23,942 bases of DNA from Candidatus Bathyarchaeota archaeon. Lineage in GTDB: Archaea; Thermoproteota; Bathyarchaeia; Bathyarchaeales; Bathycorpusculaceae. Under the pieces are notes generated by a model. That model made no database searches, was not told the DNA's origin, and saw nothing but the letters and a program-made list of their open reading frames with translations. The DNA is taken from the NCBI GenBank assembly GCA_963772455.1, contig CAVYXJ010000018.1, positions 1-23,942 of the forward strand, read 5' to 3'. Shown in pieces: positions 5,405 through 16,668 of the stretch. Within the stretch, counting starts at the first letter, position 1. The number at the start of each line of letters is the position of its first letter. A program made the translations under genes and the position numbers.

Positions 5405-5608
5405 ATGCGTCAATGCTTAACCAAGACCAGAAAAATCGGTGGCTCCATCGTTGTAACCATTCCAAAAGAAATAGTTGACCTCCAACAAATAAAAGAAAAC
5501 GAATATGTCGAAATTACAATAAAAAAATTCCGAAAAGACGGCTTCGGCATCTTAAAAGGCATGGCTTCCTTCACAGTTGAAGACGAGTTGAAATCTTCGC
5601 TTGAGTAA
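5405..5608 (+). CDS. vapB: AbrB/MazE/SpoVT-family antitoxin
   Basis: 'TRKIGGSIVVTIPKEIVD...IKENEYVEI' AbrB signature. Overlaps the PIN gene start. Start is ATG 5405 or GTG 5396. Confidence 0.85.
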   Translation: MRQCLTKTRKIGGSIVVTIPKEIVDLQQIKENEYVEITIKKFRKDGFGILKGMASFTVEDELKSSLE

Positions 5609-5990
5609 CTACATAATTGATGCTTGGACATGGATCGAGTATCTAGTTGGCAGTGAACACGGTGCCAAACTTAACAAAATCTTAGATGAAAATAACAACG
5701 AATTCTACACATGTGCCATAACGCTTGGCGAAATCATTAGCAAAGTCGCCCGAGAAAAAAGAGATATCGAAGCGGCAAGCAGCGTTGTGTGCAGCAACTC
5801 ACAAATTGTAAATGTAGACAAGGAACTTTCAGAGCAGGCAGGGCTTTTGCATTGTGAAATGAGAAAGACCCTAAAAGATTTTGGCTTAGCAGATGCATAT
5901 GTCTTAGCTACTGCTAGAAGATTAAACGCTAAAGTTTTAACAGGAGATTTACACTTCAAGAACATCAAGGACGCAGTGATGATTGAATAA
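5601..5990 (+). CDS. vapC: PIN-domain toxin (VapC)
   Basis: 'YIIDAWTWIEY', 'TLGEI', 'GLADAYVLATA', 'VLTGDLHF' give the PIN acidic catalytic set. Confidence 0.92.
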   Translation: MSNYIIDAWTWIEYLVGSEHGAKLNKILDENNNEFYTCAITLGEIISKVAREKRDIEAASSVVCSNSQIVNVDKELSEQAGLLHCEMRKTLKDFGLADAYVLATARRLNAKVLTGDLHFKNIKDAVMIE

Positions 5991-6307
5991 TCTTTAGGGT
6001 AAATAGTACTTTTTCCAAACTCAATTTTTGAAGTCTGATTTAACCTAAAATTTTGTGGTGGAGCACTGAGTTTTTCTTCTATTTCAGGTTGGCAATCTCT
6101 ACAAAGAGGTTTATCGAAGTTTTTAAGTGAAAATTTGAACTCTCCGTAGGTTATTGTTTGTTTGCATTCACTGCAGATGTAGGTTTTTTTGGGTGTGGCT
6201 GTTTTTTGGTGTTCAATACATAGAGCTTTGCCAAAATGGCTCGTTGAGTATTGATGGATTTCTCCGCTTATTGGTTCTTTGCAGATGCTACAATAATTGC
6301 CTGTCAT
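5705..6307 (-). CDS. Tandem zinc-finger protein; C-terminal half is antisense to vapC and possibly spurious read-through
   Basis: Two repeats CxxC-x~20-LCxx(H/C)Q. ATG 6307 overlaps the upstream TGA (ATGA coupling). Confidence 0.6.
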   Translation of the reverse strand: MTGNYCSICKEPISGEIHQYSTSHFGKALCIEHQKTATPKKTYICSECKQTITYGEFKFSLKNFDKPLCRDCQPEIEEKLSAPPQNFRLNQTSKIEFGKSTIYPKDYSIITASLMFLKCKSPVKTLAFNLLAVAKTYASAKPKSFRVFLISQCKSPACSESSLSTFTICELLHTTLLAASISLFSRATLLMISPSVMAHV

Positions 6308-6690
6308 TCGATCCAAACTGTTCTTATTTCCTTGATTTGGCTAAAATGAGGATCATCTGAAAAGCAAACGGCATTTAAAGACAATGCTGTGGCTGCAATC
6401 ATGCTGTCTCCCATTGAGAGCTTGTATCTTTGGCGCAGTTCCGCGGAGATCTCTGCAATTTGGTTATCGACAGGTATTATTTTGAATTCTTGTTTTAAGA
6501 AAGCAACTTTGAGTTTTGCGGTTTCTCTACCTTCATTAGCTAAGGAAAGCTTGTAGAGCTCATGTATTACTATGGCAGAAACGTATCTTTCACGTCTAGA
6601 TTTTTCTTTCCGAATTTTCTCCAATAATGCGGAATCTTTGGAATTATAATATTCCATGAAGAAGCGAGTATCGTAGACTGCTTTATTCAT
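6304..6690 (-). CDS. vapC: PIN-domain toxin (VapC)
   Basis: 'AVYDTRFF', 'VIHEL', 'LSMGDSMIAATA', 'FSDDPHF'. Confidence 0.92.
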   Translation of the reverse strand: MNKAVYDTRFFMEYYNSKDSALLEKIRKEKSRRERYVSAIVIHELYKLSLANEGRETAKLKVAFLKQEFKIIPVDNQIAEISAELRQRYKLSMGDSMIAATALSLNAVCFSDDPHFSQIKEIRTVWIE

Positions 6691-6913
6691 CTTCTTCCCT
6701 GAGTTTGTCGAGTTGCTTTTTCATTTCCTCAGGTGTTGCAATATGTGAAAATGCTCCGGCCATGTCCCAAAATGATTTCTTAGGTTTCAACAGTATGCCC
6801 TCGTCTGTTTCAACTACTTCAAGCCTTGTTCCTTCTTCAATTTTGAACTTTTTACGTAACCTTACAGGGATGGTTGTCTGACCTTTTCTTGTTACTACGA
6901 CCTCAGAGTCCAA
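6683..6913 (-). CDS. vapB: AbrB/MazE/SpoVT-family antitoxin
   Basis: 'VTRKGQTTIPVRLRKKFKIEEGTRL..VETDEGILLKP'. TTG 6913 is preceded by a GAGGT RBS; overlaps the vapC start. Confidence 0.9.
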   Translation of the reverse strand: MDSEVVVTRKGQTTIPVRLRKKFKIEEGTRLEVVETDEGILLKPKKSFWDMAGAFSHIATPEEMKKQLDKLREEDE

Positions 6914-7117
6914 CTTAAAACCTCGCACTACATTAATGCCATCTTACAAATTAAGCATTTCCATTGAGGATCCAGCAATCATATTTTTTGGGAGTTGAAC
7001 TTAGTTTCATACTAAAAGAGTTTTGAATATAACAATTATTGAATACATTTAATTTCTAAAATAGACTAAGGAAGTGAAGAAATAAAATCTATAAGTAAGT
7101 GAAAGAAGCGTACCTCG

Positions 7118-7402
7118 CTATCGCGGTGTATTATCTGATACTTTTGTTTTTGATTTCTCGATTATCTCACAGATGCGGCAGGCTGCGTCATCGAGAATTT
7201 TCTTGAGTTGCTTCATGTCTTCTTCCACTAATTCGCGATTTTGCAACAGCGGGTAGACACTGAGATGGATCAAGTCGAATGTGGCCTTTATATCAATTTT
7301 TCCGGTTCGCTTCTGATCCATTAATGACTTCATTATTTTTTCTCTTTTGGCGATCTCTTCAATCTTTAGCCTTGGTTTGTCGGTACTAAGACTTCTGCTC
7401 AT
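7118..7402 (-). CDS. Small helical hypothetical protein, last gene of the isoprenoid operon
   Basis: ATG 7402 overlaps the upstream TAA (TAATG) and follows a GAGGTG RBS; 94 aa. Confidence 0.7.
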   Translation of the reverse strand: MSRSLSTDKPRLKIEEIAKREKIMKSLMDQKRTGKIDIKATFDLIHLSVYPLLQNRELVEEDMKQLKKILDDAACRICEIIEKSKTKVSDNTPR

Positions 7403-8613
7403 TACATAACCACCTCTATCTCTGGGATTTTCATCCCACACAAGTTTAACCCCTTGATTTTAATTCCTTTTAACACCAAGCTTAGGTCGAGCTTTTGGGC
7501 GATTGCAGAGCTAGTTGTAACTGTACCCGATAAGTTTGAAAATTCCAATCCCCCCTTGATTCGCATTATAATCTTGGTGATGTTGAGAGTTAATACACCG
7601 TTAATGTGGGCTCTATCGGCGTCACCGATAAGTGTAACACCCGATCCATACATCTTCTTTGATGTTGAAATTGATAAAGCCGTATTGGATTGAGCCTCAA
7701 ACGCTTGGGTTGTGACGGATGGGATAGTTATGTTTAAGGCTTTTATGTCCTTCATGGATGCATAAGGGCTCGATATGCCCATTGAGTCCATTTCGTCAAT
7801 GCTTGTCAGATCCGTTGCAATGTCGTTGGGTCCCGTTGGATTGGGTATAGGCAAGCAGAGTCCAATGTTAATTCCTAAGGGAGTGTCAATGGGGATACTT
7901 GTACATTGCATCTGTATGTTTTCGGCTGTAACTTGGTCAATCTCAGTTTTCCCAATCGGTTCAGCGGTCATAGAGAACGGACCGATATTAGTTGCAGATG
8001 AGAACATCGAAAAGGAACCAGCCCCGAAAACGACATCTCCCAGTGTTTGTTTCTCCACATAGGAGGCAAAATTTACGCCCCCAGATACACCATAACAAAA
8101 GTCCTCCCAACAAAGCGGCCATGGCAAGTCAATGTTTCCCGAAAACGTGGTACTTATGGATAGAGTAATTTCCAACTCTACATTTTTAGCTTTACACGAA
8201 TCATACTTGAATGTTCCACTAAAATCTTTCAACTTAAGACTTGGGATGGATATTTCACCGATTTCTATCTCCCTAATCGAAAGAGGCCCACCGATGCTAG
8301 AAGCAATTTCCGATTTGGGTATAACCGCACGGGCTATCACCTTTTCTTGTCTTGGGCGACATCGCATCTGAGGCGGAGGACAATCACAACCTTTTGTTGG
8401 AATTTTGGGTAAATCAAAACAAACTTTTTGTGTTTCTACCTCAATTTTAGGCAGGTTTACGCAGACTTTTTGTGTTTCCAACTTCGGTAACGGAATGCAT
8501 ATCTTCTCTTCTTTTGATGAGATAGCTGCGTTAGTTTTTTCTACAGAAGTTATTTCTTTATTTTCTAAAACTTTTTTTGTTCTCGAGCTCTTGCTCAATC
8601 GCTTAGTCCCCAT
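7402..8613 (-). CDS. Long beta-strand-rich hypothetical protein with N-terminal Cys/Pro repeats
   Basis: 403 aa, Ile/Ser/Thr/Gly-rich alternating pattern, no obvious signal peptide or TM helix. Confidence 0.8.
   Translation of the reverse strand: MGTKRLSKSSRTKKVLENKEITSVEKTNAAISSKEEKICIPLPKLETQKVCVNLPKIEVETQKVCFDLPKIPTKGCDCPPPQMRCRPRQEKVIARAVIPKSEIASSIGGPLSIREIEIGEISIPSLKLKDFSGTFKYDSCKAKNVELEITLSISTTFSGNIDLPWPLCWEDFCYGVSGGVNFASYVEKQTLGDVVFGAGSFSMFSSATNIGPFSMTAEPIGKTEIDQVTAENIQMQCTSIPIDTPLGINIGLCLPIPNPTGPNDIATDLTSIDEMDSMGISSPYASMKDIKALNITIPSVTTQAFEAQSNTALSISTSKKMYGSGVTLIGDADRAHINGVLTLNITKIIMRIKGGLEFSNLSGTVTTSSAIAQKLDLSLVLKGIKIKGLNLCGMKIPEIEVVM
8423..8478. repeat. Intragenic 14-bp direct repeat encoding ETQKV-C-xx-LPK repeats
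   Basis: ACTTTTTGTGTTTC at 8423-8436 and 8465-8478 (42-nt spacing). Confidence 0.8.
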
Positions 8614-8697
8614 TTCTATTTGGCAGTATTGTTATTTATCGTTTGTGTTGAGTCTGATTAGTCAGCACAACTCAGAATCTAATCATCACTTAATGCC

Positions 8698-9096
8698 TTA
8701 CTTCAGTCTATATGTCAAGAAATAGAAACGAGGCGACAATCTTGAAAGCAACAAAATCTGCTCAAAAATTCTATAGCATTTTAGCAGTGTTGCGGGTTCC
8801 CCATAAGCTTCAATCTTGTTTGTTTGTAGCGATTTATCCAGCGTTATCCTACCTTCAAGAAGGTCAAAGAGACATTTTCTTGAGAGTTTTACTCGAACAT
8901 CAATCATCTTGGGTATTGTTTCACCTTCGATAATAACGTCGTTGGATGTGACTCGAATCAATGTCTTTTCCTCATCGAGGGTTTGAAGCCAAACTAAGCC
9001 CTTAGTGCTATCAATCATTCTTTGAAGATGCTTGGGATAATCTTGTCTCATTAACGCAATTAGCTCTTTTAAAAACTGTTCAAGCGTCAGTTGCAT
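8698..9096 (-). CDS. SCP2 (sterol carrier protein 2)-like lipid-binding protein
   Basis: 'DVRVKLSRKCLFDLLEGRITLDKSLQTNKIEAYGE' matches the SCP2 C-terminal pattern. Likely start ATG 9096 (or 9105), overlapping the upstream gene end. Confidence 0.75.
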   Translation of the reverse strand: MQLTLEQFLKELIALMRQDYPKHLQRMIDSTKGLVWLQTLDEEKTLIRVTSNDVIIEGETIPKMIDVRVKLSRKCLFDLLEGRITLDKSLQTNKIEAYGEPATLLKCYRIFEQILLLSRLSPRFYFLTYRLK

Positions 9097-10207
9097 TGCT
9101 CTCATCTCTCTTTCGCGGTCGAACCGATTCAAACCAGCATGGAAGTACACACTCGTAGGTGCTGCCGCCGATTTCCCCCATCAGGTTTGCTTCACAGTAC
9201 ATTTCATTAAACACAACTTCTGATGAATTGACCATACTAGTATTGACTATGCTGCACACGGCTTTAGGTATGAATACAACCTCAAGTTTGTCCCCACCTT
9301 TGGAAGCAGTAAACGTTCTGGTTTTCGGAATTGCTGGGCGATAATCTGGATATAATAACTGGGTGATTGCTGGCATGATGCTTCGATTACCATCATACTC
9401 TCCTGAGGCAGTGATCTTCATCTTGGCACTGTCGAAGAATTGTCTTTTTCCATCTTTAGTTTCAAAAAAGACGCCGCCGTATGAAAGATCGTTAGTCGCG
9501 CCATAGCGGTAAATCAGAAAATCCACTCTTCCCGGTTCAATAGCAACGCTGGGGTCACAAAAAATAACACCCGTATCCCAACCCCAAGTCATCCCTATGT
9601 CGAAGCAGCCGCCTTCATGATCCTGATATCCCTGATTCGTCTTAATCGCATAGTTTTTCTTGTTAACTTTCAAATTGCCTTCAACGAACAATCTGGGTAA
9701 TTCAACCCAGCTTTCCCATTGACGATTCATTTCTTGGGCAGCCAAGAGCATCTTTGAATTGGGATTCTGCTCCTTGAGAACTTCTATAAAGATGTCTTTG
9801 TCCGTAACAGGCGGAGAAGCAACCTTAAAGTTTAGGTTAAACGAGGACTGCTCCATTTTCCCCACAACATCAAAAGAATTGTCCTCCAACAATTCCACGG
9901 AAAAATTATCGCTGACAAAGTTTGGGTTGTAAGATGTAACTTCAAGTTGATTAATCGGAATCAGCTTTAATTCAGCAAATATCTTTCGAGAAGGGTCCAC
10001 TATGTATGAGAGAACCGAGCCCCAACCGCGTTTGGAATCATAAGGATTTCCGTGAACCCCAAAGTTTAGCAAGCCGAATATGCCCGTTTTTCGGTCAAAA
10101 AAAACAAAGTCGTGCCATTCCTGATAGAACCTAGCTCTTGGATCGAAAAGCGAGGGTAGAGTGAAAGCATCGACGCTAGCCGTGTCTTCTACACGGTAAA
10201 GAGTCAT
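9080..10207 (-). CDS. CrtC/AttH/tocopherol-cyclase-like beta-barrel protein
   Basis: 'YQEWHDFVFFD' and 'GYQDHEGG..WGWD' resemble the EWWYF and GYHDHNWG..WxW motifs of this superfamily. ATGA coupling to the upstream gene. Confidence 0.6.
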   Translation of the reverse strand: MTLYRVEDTASVDAFTLPSLFDPRARFYQEWHDFVFFDRKTGIFGLLNFGVHGNPYDSKRGWGSVLSYIVDPSRKIFAELKLIPINQLEVTSYNPNFVSDNFSVELLEDNSFDVVGKMEQSSFNLNFKVASPPVTDKDIFIEVLKEQNPNSKMLLAAQEMNRQWESWVELPRLFVEGNLKVNKKNYAIKTNQGYQDHEGGCFDIGMTWGWDTGVIFCDPSVAIEPGRVDFLIYRYGATNDLSYGGVFFETKDGKRQFFDSAKMKITASGEYDGNRSIMPAITQLLYPDYRPAIPKTRTFTASKGGDKLEVVFIPKAVCSIVNTSMVNSSEVVFNEMYCEANLMGEIGGSTYECVLPCWFESVRPRKRDESNATDA

Positions 10208-10620
10208 TGGGCTGACTGCTCAGTGGATGTTTCTTCAGGGACTGGTGCTGCTTTTTCTATTATGTCGACTGCTCGATTGGAAACTTTTTGTACAAGGGTT
10301 AGGAGCTCTGTGTTAAACTGGATGTAGAGGCGCATCATGTCACTAACAGAATTGCTGACCAACTCTGTCATTTCTTCGTTGTTTAGTTTACTCATTCGAG
10401 CAGACGCTTTACTTAGCCTTTGAGCAGTCTGAACGGTATTATTAACTGAAGCTTGAGTCAACTTGGTCAATTGCTCTCGAGTTTCAGGATTGTTCAAAGT
10501 GTTTGCAATTTGGTCTATGGCTTTCTGCACAGTTTTTGGGTTAGGCATAACTGTTTTAGGATTTACCTCGGCTGTACCTTTAGCTTTTGAGCCTGTTTTT
10601 TTAGTTGTTTTATTGCTCAC
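10204..10620 (-). CDS. All-helical, low-aromatic hypothetical protein
   Basis: GTG 10620 after GGGGAG RBS. K/T-rich N-terminus followed by amphipathic helices. Confidence 0.75.
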   Translation of the reverse strand: MSNKTTKKTGSKAKGTAEVNPKTVMPNPKTVQKAIDQIANTLNNPETREQLTKLTQASVNNTVQTAQRLSKASARMSKLNNEEMTELVSNSVSDMMRLYIQFNTELLTLVQKVSNRAVDIIEKAAPVPEETSTEQSAQ

Positions 10621-10656
10621 TGTTATCTCCCCTCTCAAGTTATCAGTTAACGCTAT

Positions 10657-11703
10657 TTAATTTTTCCGCTCAACAAGGTAGTTGGTCTGGTCAAGGAAAA
10701 AATCCTTCCACCTTTTCTCAACCATCCAGTCGCATTCATTTAGCAAAACGTCCCTGGCTTTGACAGCGAACTGCTTTGCAATTTCAACAGCGTACTCTAT
10801 GGCTTCGTATTTTTGCATTAGACCTCTAACATACTCGACTTCAGCCTCTGTCTTAACTTCTCGTGGCTTTCCCAAAATCTTTCGAACACAACCCCTCTCC
10901 TTTGCATTGCAAGTTTTGAGAGTGTGTATGAGCATGAGAGTTCTTTTTCCCTCCAAGATGTCACCATCAATTTCTTTACCATAAAGACTCTGCGAAGCTG
11001 TAAGGTTGAGGGTGTCATCAGTTATCTGGAACGCTATTCCCGTATAGAGGGCATATCTAGTGATAGCATCCAACTGCTTAGGGCTAGCTTCATCTAACCC
11101 TATGATGATGCCCGTTCGGCAGGGTGTAATGATTGTGTACCAACAAGTTTTATTCTCACAAATGTTGAAATAATCTTCAGGGGTCAAATCAACCCGGTTA
11201 TCTTTAACAAAAGTCAACTCTTTTATCTGTCCCTCAACACTTCGTCGGGCTGTTTCTTGTATTTCCATAATAATCTGCAATGATTTGCGAACGCCAATCG
11301 ATGATAAGTTGTCTATGAGCGGAGACATAGCGAGGATTTTCACTGCGTCGCCTGCGTTTGCCGCCAAAGCTAGACCGTACTTTCTGTTTAAAGTAAGACC
11401 GCCTCGGCGATAGATTGACTGATCGACAATATCGTCCTTTATTAAGAAAGAATTGTGCAGAAGCTCAATTGAGGTTGCCGTATCGATTGCTTTGTTGTAG
11501 TCGGCGCCAACTGAAGCTGTTGCGGCAAGACAAAACAGAGGACGAATCCCCTTTCCAGGTCTAGTTGGGTAGTCAGCCAAAAGGTCGTAAGCTAATGTTT
11601 TGGATCCAAAGTTCAGTTTAAGATAGTGCTGCATTCGAAGGGTAACTTTTTTCTTCATCGCCGACAAGGTTGTTTTTTCGCTCAAGCGTTGACCATCACA
11701 CAA
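10657..11703 (-). CDS. Polyprenyl diphosphate synthase (trans-IPPS family)
   Basis: 'GKGIRP', FARM 'KDDIVD..RRG', 'GQ..E', 'KT', SARM 'FQITDDTLN', 'GKEIDGDILEGKRT'. Confidence 0.93.
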   Translation of the reverse strand: MCDGQRLSEKTTLSAMKKKVTLRMQHYLKLNFGSKTLAYDLLADYPTRPGKGIRPLFCLAATASVGADYNKAIDTATSIELLHNSFLIKDDIVDQSIYRRGGLTLNRKYGLALAANAGDAVKILAMSPLIDNLSSIGVRKSLQIIMEIQETARRSVEGQIKELTFVKDNRVDLTPEDYFNICENKTCWYTIITPCRTGIIIGLDEASPKQLDAITRYALYTGIAFQITDDTLNLTASQSLYGKEIDGDILEGKRTLMLIHTLKTCNAKERGCVRKILGKPREVKTEAEVEYVRGLMQKYEAIEYAVEIAKQFAVKARDVLLNECDWMVEKRWKDFFLDQTNYLVERKN

Positions 11704-11734
11704 ATATTACTCAGAAATAATAGATAACCTTTCT

Positions 11735-13249
11735 CTATTCAGACTTAAGTGTTCTTTCAAGCCCAAAATTAGTTGAACGCCGCTTCTGAGTGCTTCCAGT
11801 ATAGTTGGAAGATGCCAATGCAACGTTAACTGCACTTGCCACCGACTTAACGGCCCAATCAAAAAGAGCAGAAGGATTCTCTGTCGCTTGAGCAGCTACC
11901 GAAAAGCCCGTTTGTATAGCCTCCAAAGCAGATTTCGCAATCACATTGGGATCCTGCACCATCTCAACCAAATTATTCAATCCAGTCGATAACATTACCT
12001 GCTCGATTGTTCCTCGAGCCACTTCCAAGTTAATTGCTTCGGTTTGAGACACCGTTCCCATTAGGATGCCTCCAACAATGTCAGCGTAACCTGAATCAAC
12101 TCGGGAACGCGCCGCCATAAGTTCCAACGAATGCAACCATAACGGGTTGAAACTTCTATTTCGAATCAACTGAACAATTAAATGTGCAATTGACATCCCG
12201 TATTGAAGTTCCCGCTCAACAATATCTTGGTATGCCGCCAAAGCTTCTTTAGACAAATCGTTGCCAGCTAAGCAGGAAATGGCGACCTCAGAGGCCCATC
12301 TGCCACTTAGAAGTGCATATTGAATTCCCTCACCATTTAATGGATTTATTAAACCCGCGGCGTCACCCACAAGCATAACGTGGTTGTCGACCAATGGCTG
12401 GTTTGGATTGTAGGTTGTTAATGGCCATCCTCCAATTTGCCCGACTAGCTTGGCGTTCTTGAGTCTTCTGCTCAAAGCTTCATCGTTGCTGATGAGTTGG
12501 TTTAGTAGCTCTACTAAGCGGTTGCCAGAAGGTATGGTGTCTAAGACCATTCCCACCCCAACATTAGCTTCGTTTTTGCCTGTAGGGAATAGCCAGCAGT
12601 AACCGGGAAAACTCTCTTTGTTAAAGTGCAGGTCAGCTTGGCTTGACTGTCCCTCAACACTCTTAAAGTATCCGCGTATCGCAATAATTCTGTCGGCACT
12701 AGAAGGAGGTTGACCCCTAACAATTCTGGCGATGGTTGAATTGCTGCCATCTGCACCTATCAACAGACGGGCCTTCAGGGTTCTTTCGCCTTCTGTCCCC
12801 TCCGTTTCTAACTCAACACCTCTATGTTTTACCCTCATGCCTACAGCTCTCATGTTTTCCAAAAAAACAACGCCTTCTCTACAAGCTGATTCTAGGAGCA
12901 GTTTATCCAAAACAAGGCGGGGCACTACACGACCATAACGCGGCAGACCTTGAACCTTCGGGGGGCTTCTAGAAACTATCTTCTTGCCATCAAGATACAC
13001 CGCGGCTTTGCTTATCCGGTTTGCACTCTTGAATTCAGGGGTGCTCGTAATTCCCAATTTGGCAAGCTCAACCTGTGCTACAGGGCTTACAAAGTCGCCG
13101 CAGATTTTGTCACGCGGAAATTTACACTTGTCTACAAGAACCACATCATAACCTGCGGTGGCTAAGTAAAGCGCAGTAGCGGAGCCTGCGGGTCCAGCGC
13201 CCACAACCAACACATCGCAGTCGTATTCCTGTTTATTATTTAACGGAAT
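11735..13249 (-). CDS. Geranylgeranyl reductase family FAD-dependent oxidoreductase
   Basis: GAGPAG Rossmann motif, 'FPRDKICGD', 'GADG', 'GYCWLFP' (YxWxFP), 'GDAAG..NPLNGEGI..A'. Start is uncertain: GTG 13213 or ATT 13249. Confidence 0.92.
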   Translation of the reverse strand: MPLNNKQEYDCDVLVVGAGPAGSATALYLATAGYDVVLVDKCKFPRDKICGDFVSPVAQVELAKLGITSTPEFKSANRISKAAVYLDGKKIVSRSPPKVQGLPRYGRVVPRLVLDKLLLESACREGVVFLENMRAVGMRVKHRGVELETEGTEGERTLKARLLIGADGSNSTIARIVRGQPPSSADRIIAIRGYFKSVEGQSSQADLHFNKESFPGYCWLFPTGKNEANVGVGMVLDTIPSGNRLVELLNQLISNDEALSRRLKNAKLVGQIGGWPLTTYNPNQPLVDNHVMLVGDAAGLINPLNGEGIQYALLSGRWASEVAISCLAGNDLSKEALAAYQDIVERELQYGMSIAHLIVQLIRNRSFNPLWLHSLELMAARSRVDSGYADIVGGILMGTVSQTEAINLEVARGTIEQVMLSTGLNNLVEMVQDPNVIAKSALEAIQTGFSVAAQATENPSALFDWAVKSVASAVNVALASSNYTGSTQKRRSTNFGLERTLKSE

Positions 13250-13629
13250 GATTTTTCACTCCTGACAAGAGAATAGGATATTGGCTTAACTAACCTGGCA
13301 AAAGGCTGGGAAAATCTAGCTAAGCTACCTGCTTTCCCATTCCCATCATGTTAGCTATGACTCACTAGAGATGATTCTCGTTAATAACTTTACTTTTACG
13401 TAAAAAGTCCACCCGTAAAAAGCTTAAACATCAGAAATAAGCAATTCCCATTCTTTTTTTACTGACAGAAAAATCAGGTTTGGTTAGTTATTGAGTGCTC
13501 GGCCCTTTTTGGACTTGAATTCGCGAATTAACATAAATGATTCTTGAAAATATGATTTCCAAAAGTTTATTTTTAAATTAACCAAAACAAACATGCGCTT
13601 ACTCGCTATCTCAAGTCTGGAGTGTTGCT

Positions 13630-13642: not shown

Positions 13643-13677
13643 CAATGCTCAATATTACTTACAATAGGTCGATTTTT

Positions 13678-14031
13678 ATGAGTGAAGAAAAAAACTTAAG
13701 ATATATGCTTCTCTGTGCCACCAAAGACCGAGCATTTAGACTAAAATTCCTAAGCAACCCAGAAGCTGTAGCGAAAGAATACAACGTAAAGCTTAAGCCT
13801 GAACATCTTGAAAAAATAAAGAGAGCTGCCGCGTTTATTGATTCTTTGAACGATGTTAGACTACCTCCAGGACCAATCTTCTACCCCATTGACCCCATTT
13901 TAAACACATGGACACTCGGAGAAATCAGGAACGTACTAAGGTACAGTTACCTGACAAAGATAAACTGGATTCTATATTCTGCCCCAGACTTTAATCAAGT
14001 GGGCGCAATTCTCAAAGAAAAGCAAAAATAA
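13678..14031 (+). CDS. Putative RiPP precursor with NHLP-clan (Os1348/Franean1_4349-like) leader
   Basis: 'ATKDRAFRLKFLSNPEAVAKEYNVKLKPEHLEKI' fits the A-x-x-D-x-x-FR-x-x-(F/L)L-x-(N/D)P leader pattern. Lies directly upstream of an rSAM/SPASM gene; RBS AGGT before ATG 13678. Confidence 0.7.
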   Translation: MSEEKNLRYMLLCATKDRAFRLKFLSNPEAVAKEYNVKLKPEHLEKIKRAAAFIDSLNDVRLPPGPIFYPIDPILNTWTLGEIRNVLRYSYLTKINWILYSAPDFNQVGAILKEKQK

Positions 14032-14053
14032 GGCTAATAACCTTATTTTTTTT
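14024..14053 (+). terminator. Hairpin/oligo-T terminator or attenuator between precursor and maturase
   Basis: Perfect 10-bp stem AAAAATAAGG-(7 nt)-CCTTATTTTT running into T8. Confidence 0.7.
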
Positions 14054-14078
14054 ATTACTCAGGTTAAAAGGTATTCCT

Positions 14079-15395
14079 TTGGTTAATCTTTTATTAACGA
14101 TGCGCTGTAACCGCGCTTGTAGCTATTGTTTCGCAAAAGAAAAACTCCATTCTTACAAAGACAAAAATGCTCCAACAGAAATCAGCATTACAAACGTAGA
14201 AAAAACTCTGGCATTTCTCTCCAAAACCCACTGCGACGCAATTCAGCTTGCAGGCGGCGAACCCACAATTCACTCCAAATTCACGGAGATAATGACGCTT
14301 CTACTCAAAAATAACCTCAGAGTCAACCTCCTAACCAACGCACTTTGGAACCCAGAATTAAATGCTTTTTTTGACAAAATATCTCCAGTTTCCCTTGGTT
14401 TTCTATTAAACATAGACCACCCTAAAACATACAAAAACTCAGAGAAAGAAAGACTAGAAGAAAACCTTGCGTTTCTTAGCAAACGAGGAAACATAACATT
14501 AAGCTTCAATTTATTCGAAAAAAAACCCGATTATGACTACATCTTTGAGCTTGTAACAAAGTATGGTTTTAAGAATCTTCGCCTAAGTTTTTCAATGCCT
14601 GTTAGCGTTGAAGGAAAAACAAACACTCACTTACCCATAAAAGAGTATAAACAAGCTGCCAGATACATTATGGATTTCACTCATAGGGCTGAACAGTTAG
14701 GCGCTACGGTTGGACTAGACAACGCTGTGCCCATATGCATGTTCACGCCTCAAGAATTATCAGAACTCATGGTCAAACAGGTTGTTTCACCTCAACGCAA
14801 CTTTGTCTGCAACCCAGCTATCGATATAGGTCCTGATCTCTCCGTTTGGAGATGCTTTGGAACATCTAAGCTATTCAACAAAAAACTCGACGACTTTGAC
14901 TCCTTGGGCGAAATCTTGGAATATTACCAACGGATGAGTAGGCTATATCAATTCAAATTTTATTCCTTAAAAGAATGCGAGACTTGTGAACATGCAAAAA
15001 AAGAGCGGTGCCAAGGGGGCTGCATAGGGTTTGCACAAGCAAAATGTGAAGAGTTGAACCTTTCAGTCTCTGAAATTGACGATAAAGAGCTACTGCAACT
15101 AAAACCTAAGCTGTCTAGTAAAGTCTCTCTTCAAAGATACAATCTACCAGTCGACGTTGCAACAATCAACTTCCATGATGGCTTCGAAATGGAGATTCCC
15201 CCAGACATGGTAGAGTTAATAGCGCTCCTAGATGGAAAAACCACAATTCTGGAGGCCTTGAACGCAAGAATTTCGGGGGCTTCCCAACTTCAAGAACCAG
15301 ATGAAATTAACGAACTTCTAATGGAGATTTCAGCTAAAGAGGTAATGCCAACAATAAGACGGCTTTTAGACAGAAAAGCACTAATTGCCAAATAA
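14079..15395 (+). CDS. Radical SAM/SPASM protein with C-terminal PqqD/RRE-like winged helix
   Basis: CNRACSYC (CxxxCxxC), GGEPT, LLTN; SPASM 'C-x14-C...CxxC-x7-CxxxC'; tail 'LIALLDGKTTILEAL...IRRLLDRKALI'. Confidence 0.9.
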   Translation: MVNLLLTMRCNRACSYCFAKEKLHSYKDKNAPTEISITNVEKTLAFLSKTHCDAIQLAGGEPTIHSKFTEIMTLLLKNNLRVNLLTNALWNPELNAFFDKISPVSLGFLLNIDHPKTYKNSEKERLEENLAFLSKRGNITLSFNLFEKKPDYDYIFELVTKYGFKNLRLSFSMPVSVEGKTNTHLPIKEYKQAARYIMDFTHRAEQLGATVGLDNAVPICMFTPQELSELMVKQVVSPQRNFVCNPAIDIGPDLSVWRCFGTSKLFNKKLDDFDSLGEILEYYQRMSRLYQFKFYSLKECETCEHAKKERCQGGCIGFAQAKCEELNLSVSEIDDKELLQLKPKLSSKVSLQRYNLPVDVATINFHDGFEMEIPPDMVELIALLDGKTTILEALNARISGASQLQEPDEINELLMEISAKEVMPTIRRLLDRKALIAK

Positions 15396-15539
15396 ACTCT
15401 CACGCAAATATTATTCGCTTATAAACTAAAATTAACATTGTTGGCATCTGAAAAAAAGCGATTTATACTCTGTTGCTGTGAGGACCCAATCACAATAGTA
15501 TATTTAGCATCATTACGCCAATAGTTTAGGTGTCGTGTT

Positions 15540-15713
15540 TTGTCGAAAGCTCAACCTCATCCAGGTCATGAAAATCACCTCTGCAAAATGGTAGAGGACA
15601 AAGTTCCAATAGAAAAGATAAAGCCACTTGTGAAAGATGCGAAATACATCTGCAAAAGCTGCATGCGAACTGCTGTTAAAGCAGAAAATCTCTGCGCCCC
15701 AGAAAAACTCTAA
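15540..15713 (+). CDS. Small His/Cys metal-binding protein, 57 aa, absent from the ORF track
   Basis: Manual translation: MSKAQPHPGHENHLCKMVEDKVPIEKIKPLVKDAKYICKSCMRTAVKAENLCAPEKL. TTG start after AGGTG RBS; oligo-T directly after the stop. Confidence 0.85.
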   Translation: MSKAQPHPGHENHLCKMVEDKVPIEKIKPLVKDAKYICKSCMRTAVKAENLCAPEKL

Positions 15714-15717
15714 ACAT

Positions 15718-15730
15718 CTTTCTTTTTTTT
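15718..15730 (+). terminator. Oligo-T terminator
   Basis: CTTTCTTTTTTTT immediately after the stop at 15713. Confidence 0.6.
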
Positions 15731-15908
15731 CGTCTGTTTACTGCTAGTTCTTTGTATCAAACCACAAAATTAAATTCTTTAACGTACTACAACAATAACC
15801 ATAGTTGTCAAGGAAGCTTGAAAATATTCTAGCTTTAGGCGGTTAGAATAAATTTACTTTTTTATGATGAAAAACCTTAAAACTTCATGACATATACTGT
15901 ATTGAGTT

Positions 15909-16100
15909 ATGGAATTAAATAGAATAATAAAGTACATAATCACAATAGGTTACATCTTTCTCGCTGTTTTATTCGCTGCAATTGCATTTAGAAGCTTATC
16001 GAGTGACATTCTTGTTGGATTGACAATAAGTGTTGTTGTTTTCATAGTTGTCATACTTGCGGGTTATTTCCTTTTTGAAAAATTCTTGAAATTTGATTAA
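15909..16100 (+). CDS. Small two-TM membrane protein
   Basis: Two hydrophobic segments. BRE/TATA-like GAAAAACCTTAAAA about 27 nt upstream. Confidence 0.65.
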   Translation: MELNRIIKYIITIGYIFLAVLFAAIAFRSLSSDILVGLTISVVVFIVVILAGYFLFEKFLKFD

Positions 16101-16397
16101 TTTCTTTAATTTTCATTATTTATTTGAAGCAAAGTTTTAGGGCTCCCCAAACACATGCTTCACGCAGCAAAAATCTATCGAAGACTAAGAGGACTATTTT
16201 TTGATGGCGAAAGTATCTAAGATCTGATCTTGGCTTATCATTCTTGATATAATCTGAGAGTTGAAATACGCCTTATATTTTCATTATTAACTAAGTGTTT
16301 AGGTGCTTGGAGTTGGAAGAAATGCAAGCAGTCAATTCTGTTTCCAAGTCATGTGTTAATTGTGGCATTTGTAATCTTTCTTACTTGGTTTGTGACT

Positions 16398-16616
16398 TCA
16401 ATAGGCATGTGGTTTCTTGGGGAACATGCTACCATTGGGTACCGCGTCGAAATAATGTATAGGTCCGCAACCGTCTATTTTGAATCCATGAGGTACTGAG
16501 TTTCGAACTCTGTCAAATTCAGGTTTATCACTTCTGGGAACAGTAAAGTCAATATCTACCGTTGATACTTTGAGGTCGAGGAGTGTCATTGCCGTGCACA
16601 AAACTTTGAGAAACAA
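16398..16616 (-). pseudogene. Fragment of a DUF6036/AbiEii-like nucleotidyltransferase
   Basis: 'TAMTLLDLKVSTVDIDF' matches the GGTA(M/L)...T-x-D-I-D NTase motif but lacks the GG, the N-terminus and most of the C-terminus. Confidence 0.65.
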
Positions 16617-16668
16617 GTCCTACCGATTAATCGCAATGTTAACACCCTAATAAAAATTTAGGATTTCA

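Follow-up and report, generated by a model that had tools for sequence, protein, structure and literature searches.

A conserved archaeal gene cassette with a predicted role in making and tailoring a short isoprenoid

Gene content and organization

The DNA analysed here is a stretch of 23,942 nucleotides (nt) on contig CAVYXJ010000018.1 of a Candidatus Bathyarchaeota assembly (GCA_963772455.1), the full length of which we call the window. Its minus strand carries a block of seven same-direction open reading frames (ORFs), named g1 to g7, which extends from 7118 to 13213 in the ORF listing, with its members tightly spaced or overlapping; the 5' end of the block probably reaches to about 13252. 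The host is a soil Bathyarchaeota genome, the window being archaeal with its nearest relatives among Bathyarchaeota metagenome-assembled genomes (MAGs). We class the block as a probable terpenoid-type biosynthetic cluster whose enzymes belong to known superfamilies without passing any equivalog test, and three of its core proteins belong to unnamed families.

The gene at the 5' end, g1 (13213..11735, 492 amino acids (aa) from the GTG at 13213), encodes a flavin adenine dinucleotide-dependent protein of the geranylgeranyl reductase (GGR) family (TIGR02032, PF22578), and is followed by g2 (11703..10657, 348 aa), which encodes a trans-isoprenyl diphosphate synthase resembling geranylgeranyl diphosphate (GGPP) synthases (GGPPS; PF00348). 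Gene g3 (10638..10204, 144 aa) encodes a small, weakly phasin-like helical protein with an N-terminal tail rich in Lys, Ser and Thr, and g4 (10207..9080, 375 aa) a protein with the double-lipocalin AttH/CrtC fold, as judged from an AlphaFold model and Foldseek. The SCP2-like lipid-binding protein encoded by g5 (9096..8698) has 132 aa when begun at an internal Met, a start inferred from alignment with relatives, the longest ORF being 9150..8698 (150 aa). The last two genes are g6 (8613..7402, 403 aa), for a beta-rich protein of a small unnamed family, and g7 (7402..7118, 94 aa from the Met at 7402; longest ORF 7441..7118, 107 aa), for a small helical protein. Gaps of 31 nt between g1 and g2 and 18 nt between g2 and g3 are followed by a 4 nt overlap of g3 and g4 and, with the starts chosen for g5 and g7, by a 17 nt overlap of g4 and g5, a gap of 84 nt between g5 and g6, and a 1 nt overlap of g6 and g7.

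These coordinates confirm the seven co-directional, close or overlapping genes described in an initial annotation made from the sequence alone, and the 94 aa that it gave for g7 are obtained with the Met at 7402. All seven of its gene identifications are borne out, including the call of g4 as a CrtC/AttH-like protein, for which Foldseek returned a matching fold. The impression that the block is richer in GC than its flanks also holds, although the difference is modest (43.2% versus 38.0% in the remaining window). Likewise, the reported absence from the window of ether-lipid, phytoene/squalene synthase and UbiA genes agrees with our scan of 27 window ORFs, none of which matched the GGGPS, DGGGPS/UbiA, CarS or squalene/phytoene synthase families. 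For g3, g4, g6 and g7 there was no Pfam or NCBIfam match above cut-off. The maximum 19-residue Kyte-Doolittle mean is at most 1.47 in all seven proteins, which is too low for a membrane span.

Conservation across archaea

A one-genome-per-species scan for relatives of g4, with the neighbouring genes located by tblastn and phmmer, gave 28 loci (written as L and a number where single loci are named): 12 from Bathyarchaeota, five from Methanoperedens, ten from non-ammonia-oxidising Nitrososphaerota and one from an unclassified archaeon. The order g2-g3-g4-g5, with g6 and g7 alongside, recurs over these 28 loci. Upstream of g4, g2 is present in 27 loci, the exception being a 2 kb contig, and g3 is found in all 28, sitting between g2 and g4 wherever the contig extends far enough. 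Downstream, g5 is present in 26 loci, the other two ending at g4; g6 is present in 25, the other three being cut off by contig ends; and g7 was detected beside g6 in 23 by phmmer. Relative to g2-g5, the g6-g7 pair is inverted as a unit in six Nitrososphaerota loci and in the unclassified L028, seven in all. As it is found as a unit in 28 loci, the block is not a chance arrangement, and the conservation of gene order on which the initial annotation had made its proposal depend thus holds in three archaeal phyla. No published description of this gene combination was found in the literature searched.

The distribution of the reductase sets it apart from the other genes. Whereas g1 adjoins the cassette in every Bathyarchaeota locus (12 of 12) and never in the 16 others, four of the ten Nitrososphaerota loci have beside the cassette a different, well-conserved GGR-like protein of 350-357 aa that scores 46-50 bits on TIGR02032 (L020:14302-15354, L021:13437-14510, L024:7371-8435 and L027:12061-13134). 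For this reason, the conserved unit is the six genes g2 to g7, to which a reductase has been added independently at least twice. The seven genes that had been proposed to form one unit are all present here, but g1 is a lineage-specific addition to a six-gene core. In L021 and L027, a lipid-binding SRPBCC (Polyketide_cyc) protein is encoded next to the GGR-like gene. It should be noted that tblastn split cassette genes into at least two pieces in L001, L011, L026, L009 and L028; these breaks are probably frameshift errors of MAG assembly and not real pseudogenes.

The prenyl synthase and the reductase

The g2 protein scores 183.6 bits on PF00348 (cut-off 27), and its best NCBIfam models are GGPP_syn (NF041003, 163.6 bits) and IdsA (NF040698, 163.0 bits), the cut-offs of which, 500 and 468 bits respectively, it does not reach; its relatives in L013 and L021 score 143-172 bits on the housekeeping IdsA/GGPP synthase equivalogs. 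The closest PDB match is the Thermus GGPPS 1wmw (E 1.7e-44), with which g2 has a DDxxN second motif in common. In all 14 family members aligned (mean column identity 82%), the Asp-rich motifs DDxVD and DDTLN are invariant, an aromatic residue stands four positions ahead of the first of them, and a C-terminal block, ECDWM.EKRWK.FF.DQT.YL, shows little or no variation. The accepted rule on chain length in these synthases is that an aromatic residue shortly before the first Asp-rich motif leads to a short product. Because the catalytic motifs are invariant, the nearest solved relatives are GGPP synthases and this aromatic residue is present, the g2 product is predicted to be a short prenyl diphosphate, most likely C20. 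The relatives of g2 begin about seven codons further downstream than the 348-aa call in the window, and the best 120 matches listed in a homologue search all lie within the g2 family.

The g1 protein passes both the GGR superfamily model TIGR02032 (215.4 bits, cut-off 158.8) and GGR_cat (PF22578; 36.4 bits, cut-off 27) but falls below the equivalog cut-offs for DGGGPL reductase (103.9 versus 580 and 101.2 versus 780 bits) and MenJ (151.1 versus 700 bits). Its closest PDB match, 3oz2 (E 9e-25), spans residues 2-335, and g1 carries about 150 extra C-terminal residues. The suggestion that synthase and reductase are unlike the housekeeping types is thus upheld by the scores (163 bits versus 468-500 for g2, and 104 versus 580 for g1).

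The AttH/CrtC-fold protein

An AlphaFold model of g4 was built from 20 family members, with a predicted local distance difference test score (pLDDT) of 82.5 and a predicted template modelling (TM) score of 0.86. In a Foldseek search of the PDB, it matched AttH NE1406 (2ich, E 2.2e-13, TM 0.56/0.64), kievitone hydratase (7a0t, E 5.9e-11), 25-phosphosteroid lyase (9fzn, E 1.6e-10) and fungal Diels-Alderases, which are decalin-forming cyclases (E about 1e-8); ranks 1 to 21, and every significant match, are proteins of the AttH fold. According to this model, g4 has the two-domain lipocalin-like AttH/CrtC fold. DUF2804 gives a weak match in three of the 20 members (best E 0.0077).

Among the 64 invariant columns of the family are Y194, D196, H197, E198 and W167; the most conserved block, GYQDHEGG.FD.G..WGWD, contains the invariant Y194-x-D196, and W167 lies 27 residues upstream. 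The CrtC of R. gelatinosus requires H239, W241, Y266 and D268 (PMC4717167). The Y194-x-D196, H197 and W167 of g4 look like this catalytic arrangement, as judged by spacing and not by residue-level alignment. Enzymes of the AttH fold carry out cofactor-free carbocation chemistry on prenyl groups (PMC6013536; bioRxiv 10.1101/2025.10.20.683597); for example, CrtC and kievitone hydratase hydrate prenyl double bonds to tertiary alcohols, and geranylgeraniol is converted by CrtC to some extent (PMC6013536). Another enzyme of the fold, 25-phosphosteroid lyase, eliminates phosphate. Taken with the modelled fold, this makes g4 a probable hydratase, lyase or cyclase that works by acid catalysis on an isoprene double bond.

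The small and beta-rich partner proteins

The evidence for g5 as an SCP2-like lipid-binding protein consists of weak matches that extend over the family. In the window, its only match is a weak one to Alkyl_sulf_C (19.1 bits against a cut-off of 27), which belongs to the SCP2 fold (PF02036 / PF14864), and among 15 family members SCP2 is matched in 14 and Alkyl_sulf_C in 15, all weakly (best E 2.4e-6 and 1.1e-5, respectively). A profile of g5 searched against the PDB gave the SCP2 protein 4uei at E 0.12. For g3, there was no Pfam match at E <= 0.01, and its profile gave no match to PDB sequences. Kinship between g3 and g7, or between g4 and g5, was rejected (hhalign probability <= 8.4%).

The conserved core of g6 comprises about 310 residues (95-403). 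Ahead of it, an N-terminal extension of 95 residues, rich in Cys and containing 14-residue repeats, is found in Bathyarchaeota, is shorter in Methanoperedens and is absent from Nitrososphaerota; a 42 nt tandem repeat at 8401-8483 encodes the Cys-containing repeat units (QKVC..LPKI). The g6 family is small: of 1.84 billion representatives, its profile retrieves 65 at E <= 0.001. No Pfam cut-off is reached by any of 36 distant members, and a comparison with the Atlas gave no usable match. The model of g6 is nearly all beta-strand and of low confidence (pLDDT 55.2), with strands at 120-220 and 285-380 reaching 80-90. Foldseek matches of this model to secretins, capsids and other proteins (PDB and viral structures) had TM scores <= 0.14 and were taken as meaningless. 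A three-copy complex prediction of the core scored 0.01, which speaks neither for nor against binding. Relationships of g6 to a DUF4097 protein in the window, to g4, to g5, or between its own halves were likewise rejected (hhalign probability <= 8.4%).

The start of g7 overlaps the stop of g6, and the two genes travel together even where the pair is inverted. No family match for g7 was found in Pfam or NCBIfam, and a PADLOC match (E 0.0066, 13.5 bits) was taken as noise. In eight loci (seven Nitrososphaerota and the unclassified L028), an extra gene for a Cys-rich protein of about 100 aa lies between g5 and g7, for example at L017:3182-3502 (-) and L021:11583-11876 (-); its motifs VCLTFD and FPKIQ loosely recall the g6 extension of Bathyarchaeota, a resemblance that is not significant (best E 0.75 against this section of the window).

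The leader region and the start of g1

A conserved leader and promoter region on the minus strand (13214..13418) precedes g1 and contains a GGAGTGA motif and an inverted repeat. In L007, GTA replaces the GTG at 13213, and relatives show synonymous changes in the 13 in-frame codons that precede it. These codons follow the conserved GGAGTGA motif and an ATC ATT pair, and the stretch that separates the GTG from the stop codon upstream (13258-13256) contains no ATG, GTG or TTG. The pattern suggests that the true start of g1 is probably upstream, near 13252/13249, where it may be a non-canonical ATC or ATT. The inverted repeat, AAAGCAAAG ... CTTTGCTTT, at about 13396-13384 and 13329-13317, is kept in all nine Bathyarchaeota sequences compared. 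It has a weak consensus fold (-6.75 kcal/mol) with almost no covariation, and may serve as an RNA stem or as the binding site of a regulator.

Borders and evolutionary history

At the nucleotide level, the window aligns with the 12 Bathyarchaeota loci from 7117-7119 (7393 for L007) up to 13263-13418, a span that corresponds to the cassette plus its leader; elsewhere in the window, there are only two short stray alignments to these loci (L004 and L009). Most pairs of Bathyarchaeota loci likewise have only the cassette in common. At the borders, we found no tRNA, no recombinase or integrase, no notable flanking repeats and no Rfam family. A phage, plasmid or defence-system origin was considered and rejected, as it had no supporting match: there was no PHROGs match, g4 matched no plasmid and g6 no phage, and the only PADLOC signal was the noise noted above.

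Trees of 24 sequences each were built for g2, g4 and g6, after rows shorter than 320, 360 and 280 aa, respectively, had been dropped; the trees are unrooted and that of g6 comes from a quick search only. In all three, the Bathyarchaeota and the Methanoperedens copies each form one well-supported group. The Bathyarchaeota copies form a single clade (support 100/100) and have diverged to about 75% nucleotide identity, which indicates long residence in Bathyarchaeota and does not support a recent arrival. Across phyla, the g2 of the window is 65-72% identical to the Methanoperedens and Nitrososphaerota copies. Such identity is much above expectation for vertical inheritance in this enzyme family. 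This makes an older transfer between phyla plausible, with the unrooted trees naming no donor. The initial annotation had called the pathway acquired, and that term remains plausible in the sense of an older transfer between phyla; a recent acquisition finds no support in the single Bathyarchaeota clade, its divergence and the unmarked borders. The similar gene strings that it mentioned in bacteria were not found: all 28 genome loci are archaeal, and a bacterial label was carried by a single partial protein among 112 g4 homologues, on a 1.6 kb contig.

Neighbouring DNA

Divergent from g1, on the plus strand at 13645-15395, lie genes for a 128 aa protein with a weak match to an NHLP-clan leader-peptide model (30.1 bits on NF038399, which has a cut-off of 40) and for a 438 aa radical-SAM protein with a Fer4_12 (4Fe-4S) domain, several of whose weak NCBIfam matches are SPASM-type peptide maturases. 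From these matches, the pair looks like a precursor and maturase of a ribosomally synthesized and post-translationally modified peptide, and it is absent from all 28 related loci. Beyond this pair, 15400-16668 is a 1.27 kb AT-rich stretch (GC about 0.35) with no ORF above 72 aa, one short ORF of which (63 aa, 15909-16100) is hydrophobic. Just downstream of g7 is a toxin-antitoxin patch (5601-6928), in which a MazE/AbrB-type antitoxin gene (6928..6683) overlaps a PIN toxin gene (6690..6304) and a second PIN gene (5601..5990) lies on the opposite strand to that pair. Among 40 flank ORFs scanned in the related loci, the sole B12-binding radical-SAM protein is encoded at L007:14251-15372 (+), about 1 kb downstream of g7; this gene is of note because the known archaeal AttH-fold hydratase pairs with a B12 radical-SAM desaturase.

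Discussion

Proposed function

We propose, with a probability of about one half, that g1 to g7 form a self-contained, soluble seven-protein cassette that makes and tailors a dedicated short acyclic isoprenoid, the predicted product. In this scheme, g2 would extend an allylic primer with isopentenyl diphosphate and so form a short prenyl diphosphate, the likeliest being geranylgeranyl diphosphate (C20). An acidic residue of g4 would then protonate a trisubstituted isoprene double bond of this product or of a derivative, after which water would most likely be added and a tertiary alcohol formed, the outcome known from CrtC, kievitone hydratase and the archaeal Hgs. This step is assigned to g4 because known AttH-fold enzymes perform acid-initiated chemistry on prenyl double bonds and CrtC takes geranylgeraniol. 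The g5 protein, the start of whose gene overlaps the end of g4, may keep the hydrophobic substrate or product in solution, and a flavin reductase would saturate remaining double bonds, namely g1 in Bathyarchaeota and the distinct GGR-like protein in some Nitrososphaerota. The recruitment of a reductase on two occasions argues for a product that is a polyunsaturated prenyl chain. Finally, g3, g6 and g7 are putative non-enzymatic partners that might contact the other proteins and serve the apolar product as coat, scaffold or carrier. The carrier or storage component of the initial proposal fits with an SCP2-like g5 and a weakly phasin-like g3.

Several observations weigh against this proposal. 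Proteins of the AttH fold also include lipid carriers, and the fold covers non-hydratases as well (Diels-Alderases and a phospho-lyase), so that g4 need not hydrate its substrate. The Pfam CrtC and AttH models give no match at E <= 5 in any of the 20 g4 members, the g4 profile has no match among PDB sequences, and the likeness to the CrtC active site is, as stated, one of spacing. No prenyl-diphosphate consumer (prenyltransferase, terpene synthase, or squalene/phytoene synthase) is present in the window or the flanks examined, and for Methanoperedens the flanks covered contain no reductase. No role can be assigned to g3, g6 and g7, half of the six core proteins. For g3, Phasin_2 (PF09361) is matched in three of 15 members at E about 0.03 (14.9 bits against a cut-off of 24.9), which is below significance, and the nearest named Atlas clusters (Phasin_2 0.83, PHB_acc 0.80 and PHA_synth_III_E 0.78) are leads only. 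Fused forms of g5 were sought and none was found, which is weak evidence.

Comparison with known systems

The cassette recalls several known systems without coinciding with any of them. With CrtC and kievitone hydratase, g4 has in common the double-lipocalin fold and a Y-x-D motif with an upstream Trp at CrtC-like spacing (PMC4717167), but it has no Pfam CrtC/AttH or PDB sequence match and its partners are SCP2-like and unknown-family proteins. In addition, no phytoene synthase or desaturase is linked to g4, which argues against a carotenoid substrate. CrtC sits in carotenoid clusters with CrtE, and g4 is similarly placed beside a GGPPS-like synthase. The archaeal Hgs is likewise an AttH-fold protein that converts isoprenoid double bonds to tertiary alcohols, in lineages that overlap with those of the cassette (Bathyarchaeota and anaerobic methanotrophic archaea (ANME)), but hgs overlaps ted, the gene of a B12 radical-SAM desaturase, and Hgs acts on finished membrane lipids (bioRxiv 10.1101/2025.10.20.683597). 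In contrast, g4 is flanked by g3 and g5 downstream of a synthase and without ted, a comparison made by description and not by sequence, and it occurs in Nitrososphaerota, which are not among the phyla that the preprint names for Hgs (bioRxiv 10.1101/2025.10.20.683597).

The g2 protein belongs to the same family as IdsA and the Thermus GGPPS 1wmw and has both Asp-rich motifs, including the DDxxN variant of 1wmw, but differs in its equivalog scores, its high cross-phylum identity and its conserved C-terminal block. Similarly, g1 passes the GGR superfamily model and has the GGR catalytic domain, as expected of a relative of the DGGGPL reductase 3oz2 and MenJ, but it stays below their equivalog cut-offs, has the C-terminal extension and, outside Bathyarchaeota, is not linked to the cassette. 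A further likeness is to Family 2 encapsulins, in that g2 scores 143.3 bits on the polyprenyl-transferase cargo model NF041169 and several cassette proteins have basic disordered N-terminal tails; that score, however, is far from the cut-off of 450 and below the GGPPS scores of g2, g6 is modelled as all-beta, and the 27 window ORFs scanned include no match to an encapsulin or HK97-type shell family.

Alternative explanations

Other products and fates can be envisaged for the same genes. The cassette might instead tailor membrane lipids, supplying a hydroxylated, partly saturated C20 chain that ether-lipid enzymes encoded elsewhere would build into hydroxyarchaeol- or hydroxy-glycerol dialkyl glycerol tetraether (GDGT)-type lipids, as an alternative to the Ted/Hgs and Has routes. 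Methanoperedens, in which the cassette occurs, makes hydroxylated ether lipids, and g4 has the same AttH fold as Hgs. Hgs itself makes hydroxy-GDGTs and has homologues in Bathyarchaeota and ANME (bioRxiv 10.1101/2025.10.20.683597). We nevertheless regard membrane-lipid tailoring, plausible as it is, as unlikely: GGGPS, DGGGPS and CarS are lacking in the window and the examined flanks; ted, the hallmark of Hgs, is absent and the radical-SAM genes of the window show no B12-binding domain; and a private synthase, an SCP2-like protein and three further soluble proteins would be superfluous for modifying lipids in place. Somewhat less probable again is an isoprenoid inclusion body, that is, an apolar droplet or particle in the cytoplasm with g3 and g6/g7 as its coat and g5 as the carrier that loads it. 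In its favour, no membrane span is predicted in any of the seven proteins, although what they make must be hydrophobic; g6 is inherited together with g7, and the long strands of the g6 model pack poorly as a monomer. By language-model features, moreover, the nearest neighbours of g3 are three families of polyhydroxyalkanoate granules, with the weak Phasin_2 matches pointing the same way. Set against this, every g3 signal is below significance, the g6 fold was resolved neither by the model nor by Foldseek, and an archaeal isoprenoid droplet was not found in the literature searched.

A role in supplying the side chain of a prenylated cofactor such as a quinone, with g2 building the chain and g1 acting in the manner of MenJ, seems improbable to us. 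Reductase and synthase genes are neighbours in mycobacteria, and MenJ is, apart from the GGR superfamily model, the best NCBIfam score of g1 (151 bits). That score, however, is far under the 700-bit cut-off, the window has no UbiA/MenA prenyltransferase or other quinone gene, g2 looks short-chain, and in lineages other than Bathyarchaeota the cassette lacks g1. The least convincing of these readings, and in our view a very remote one, is catabolism or scavenging, in which the cell would begin to use isoprenoid alkenes from anoxic peat or soil by importing and hydrating them through g4 and the carriers. An AttH-fold lyase takes part in anaerobic sterol side-chain breakdown, the steps of which include hydration of isoprene double bonds to tertiary alcohols and the reverse elimination (PMC8449060, PMC11061730), and many isolate names among the loci point to soil, peat, bog or groundwater; yet the best-conserved gene is a biosynthetic synthase with intact motifs, and in neither the window nor the examined flanks does the cassette have a linked gene for a transporter, an oxidoreductase or beta-oxidation.

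Implications

The most far-reaching form of the droplet idea would make the six-gene core the builder of an unrecognised archaeal cell structure, a cytoplasmic particle or droplet of an apolar, hydroxylated or saturated isoprenoid. Its contents would be made by g2 and g4, loaded by g5 and coated by g3 and g6/g7, and gene transfer would have carried the whole between soil and peat Bathyarchaeota, Methanoperedens and Nitrososphaerota; taken together, these claims are doubtful, and we hold them no more probable than the inclusion body weighed above.

Returning to the dedicated isoprenoid pathway that we propose, the routes to several archaeal isoprenoids are only now emerging, among them those to hydroxylated lipids and to the apolar hydrocarbons that are used as sediment biomarkers. 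The conserved synthase, together with linked AttH-fold, SCP2-like and three unknown-family proteins, marks a discrete pathway in abundant uncultured archaea of soils and wetlands. Identifying its product could add an archaeal lipid or terpenoid, possibly the source of a biomarker, could give first functions to three uncharacterised protein families, and could reveal the way in which archaea deal with a hydrophobic product outside the membrane.

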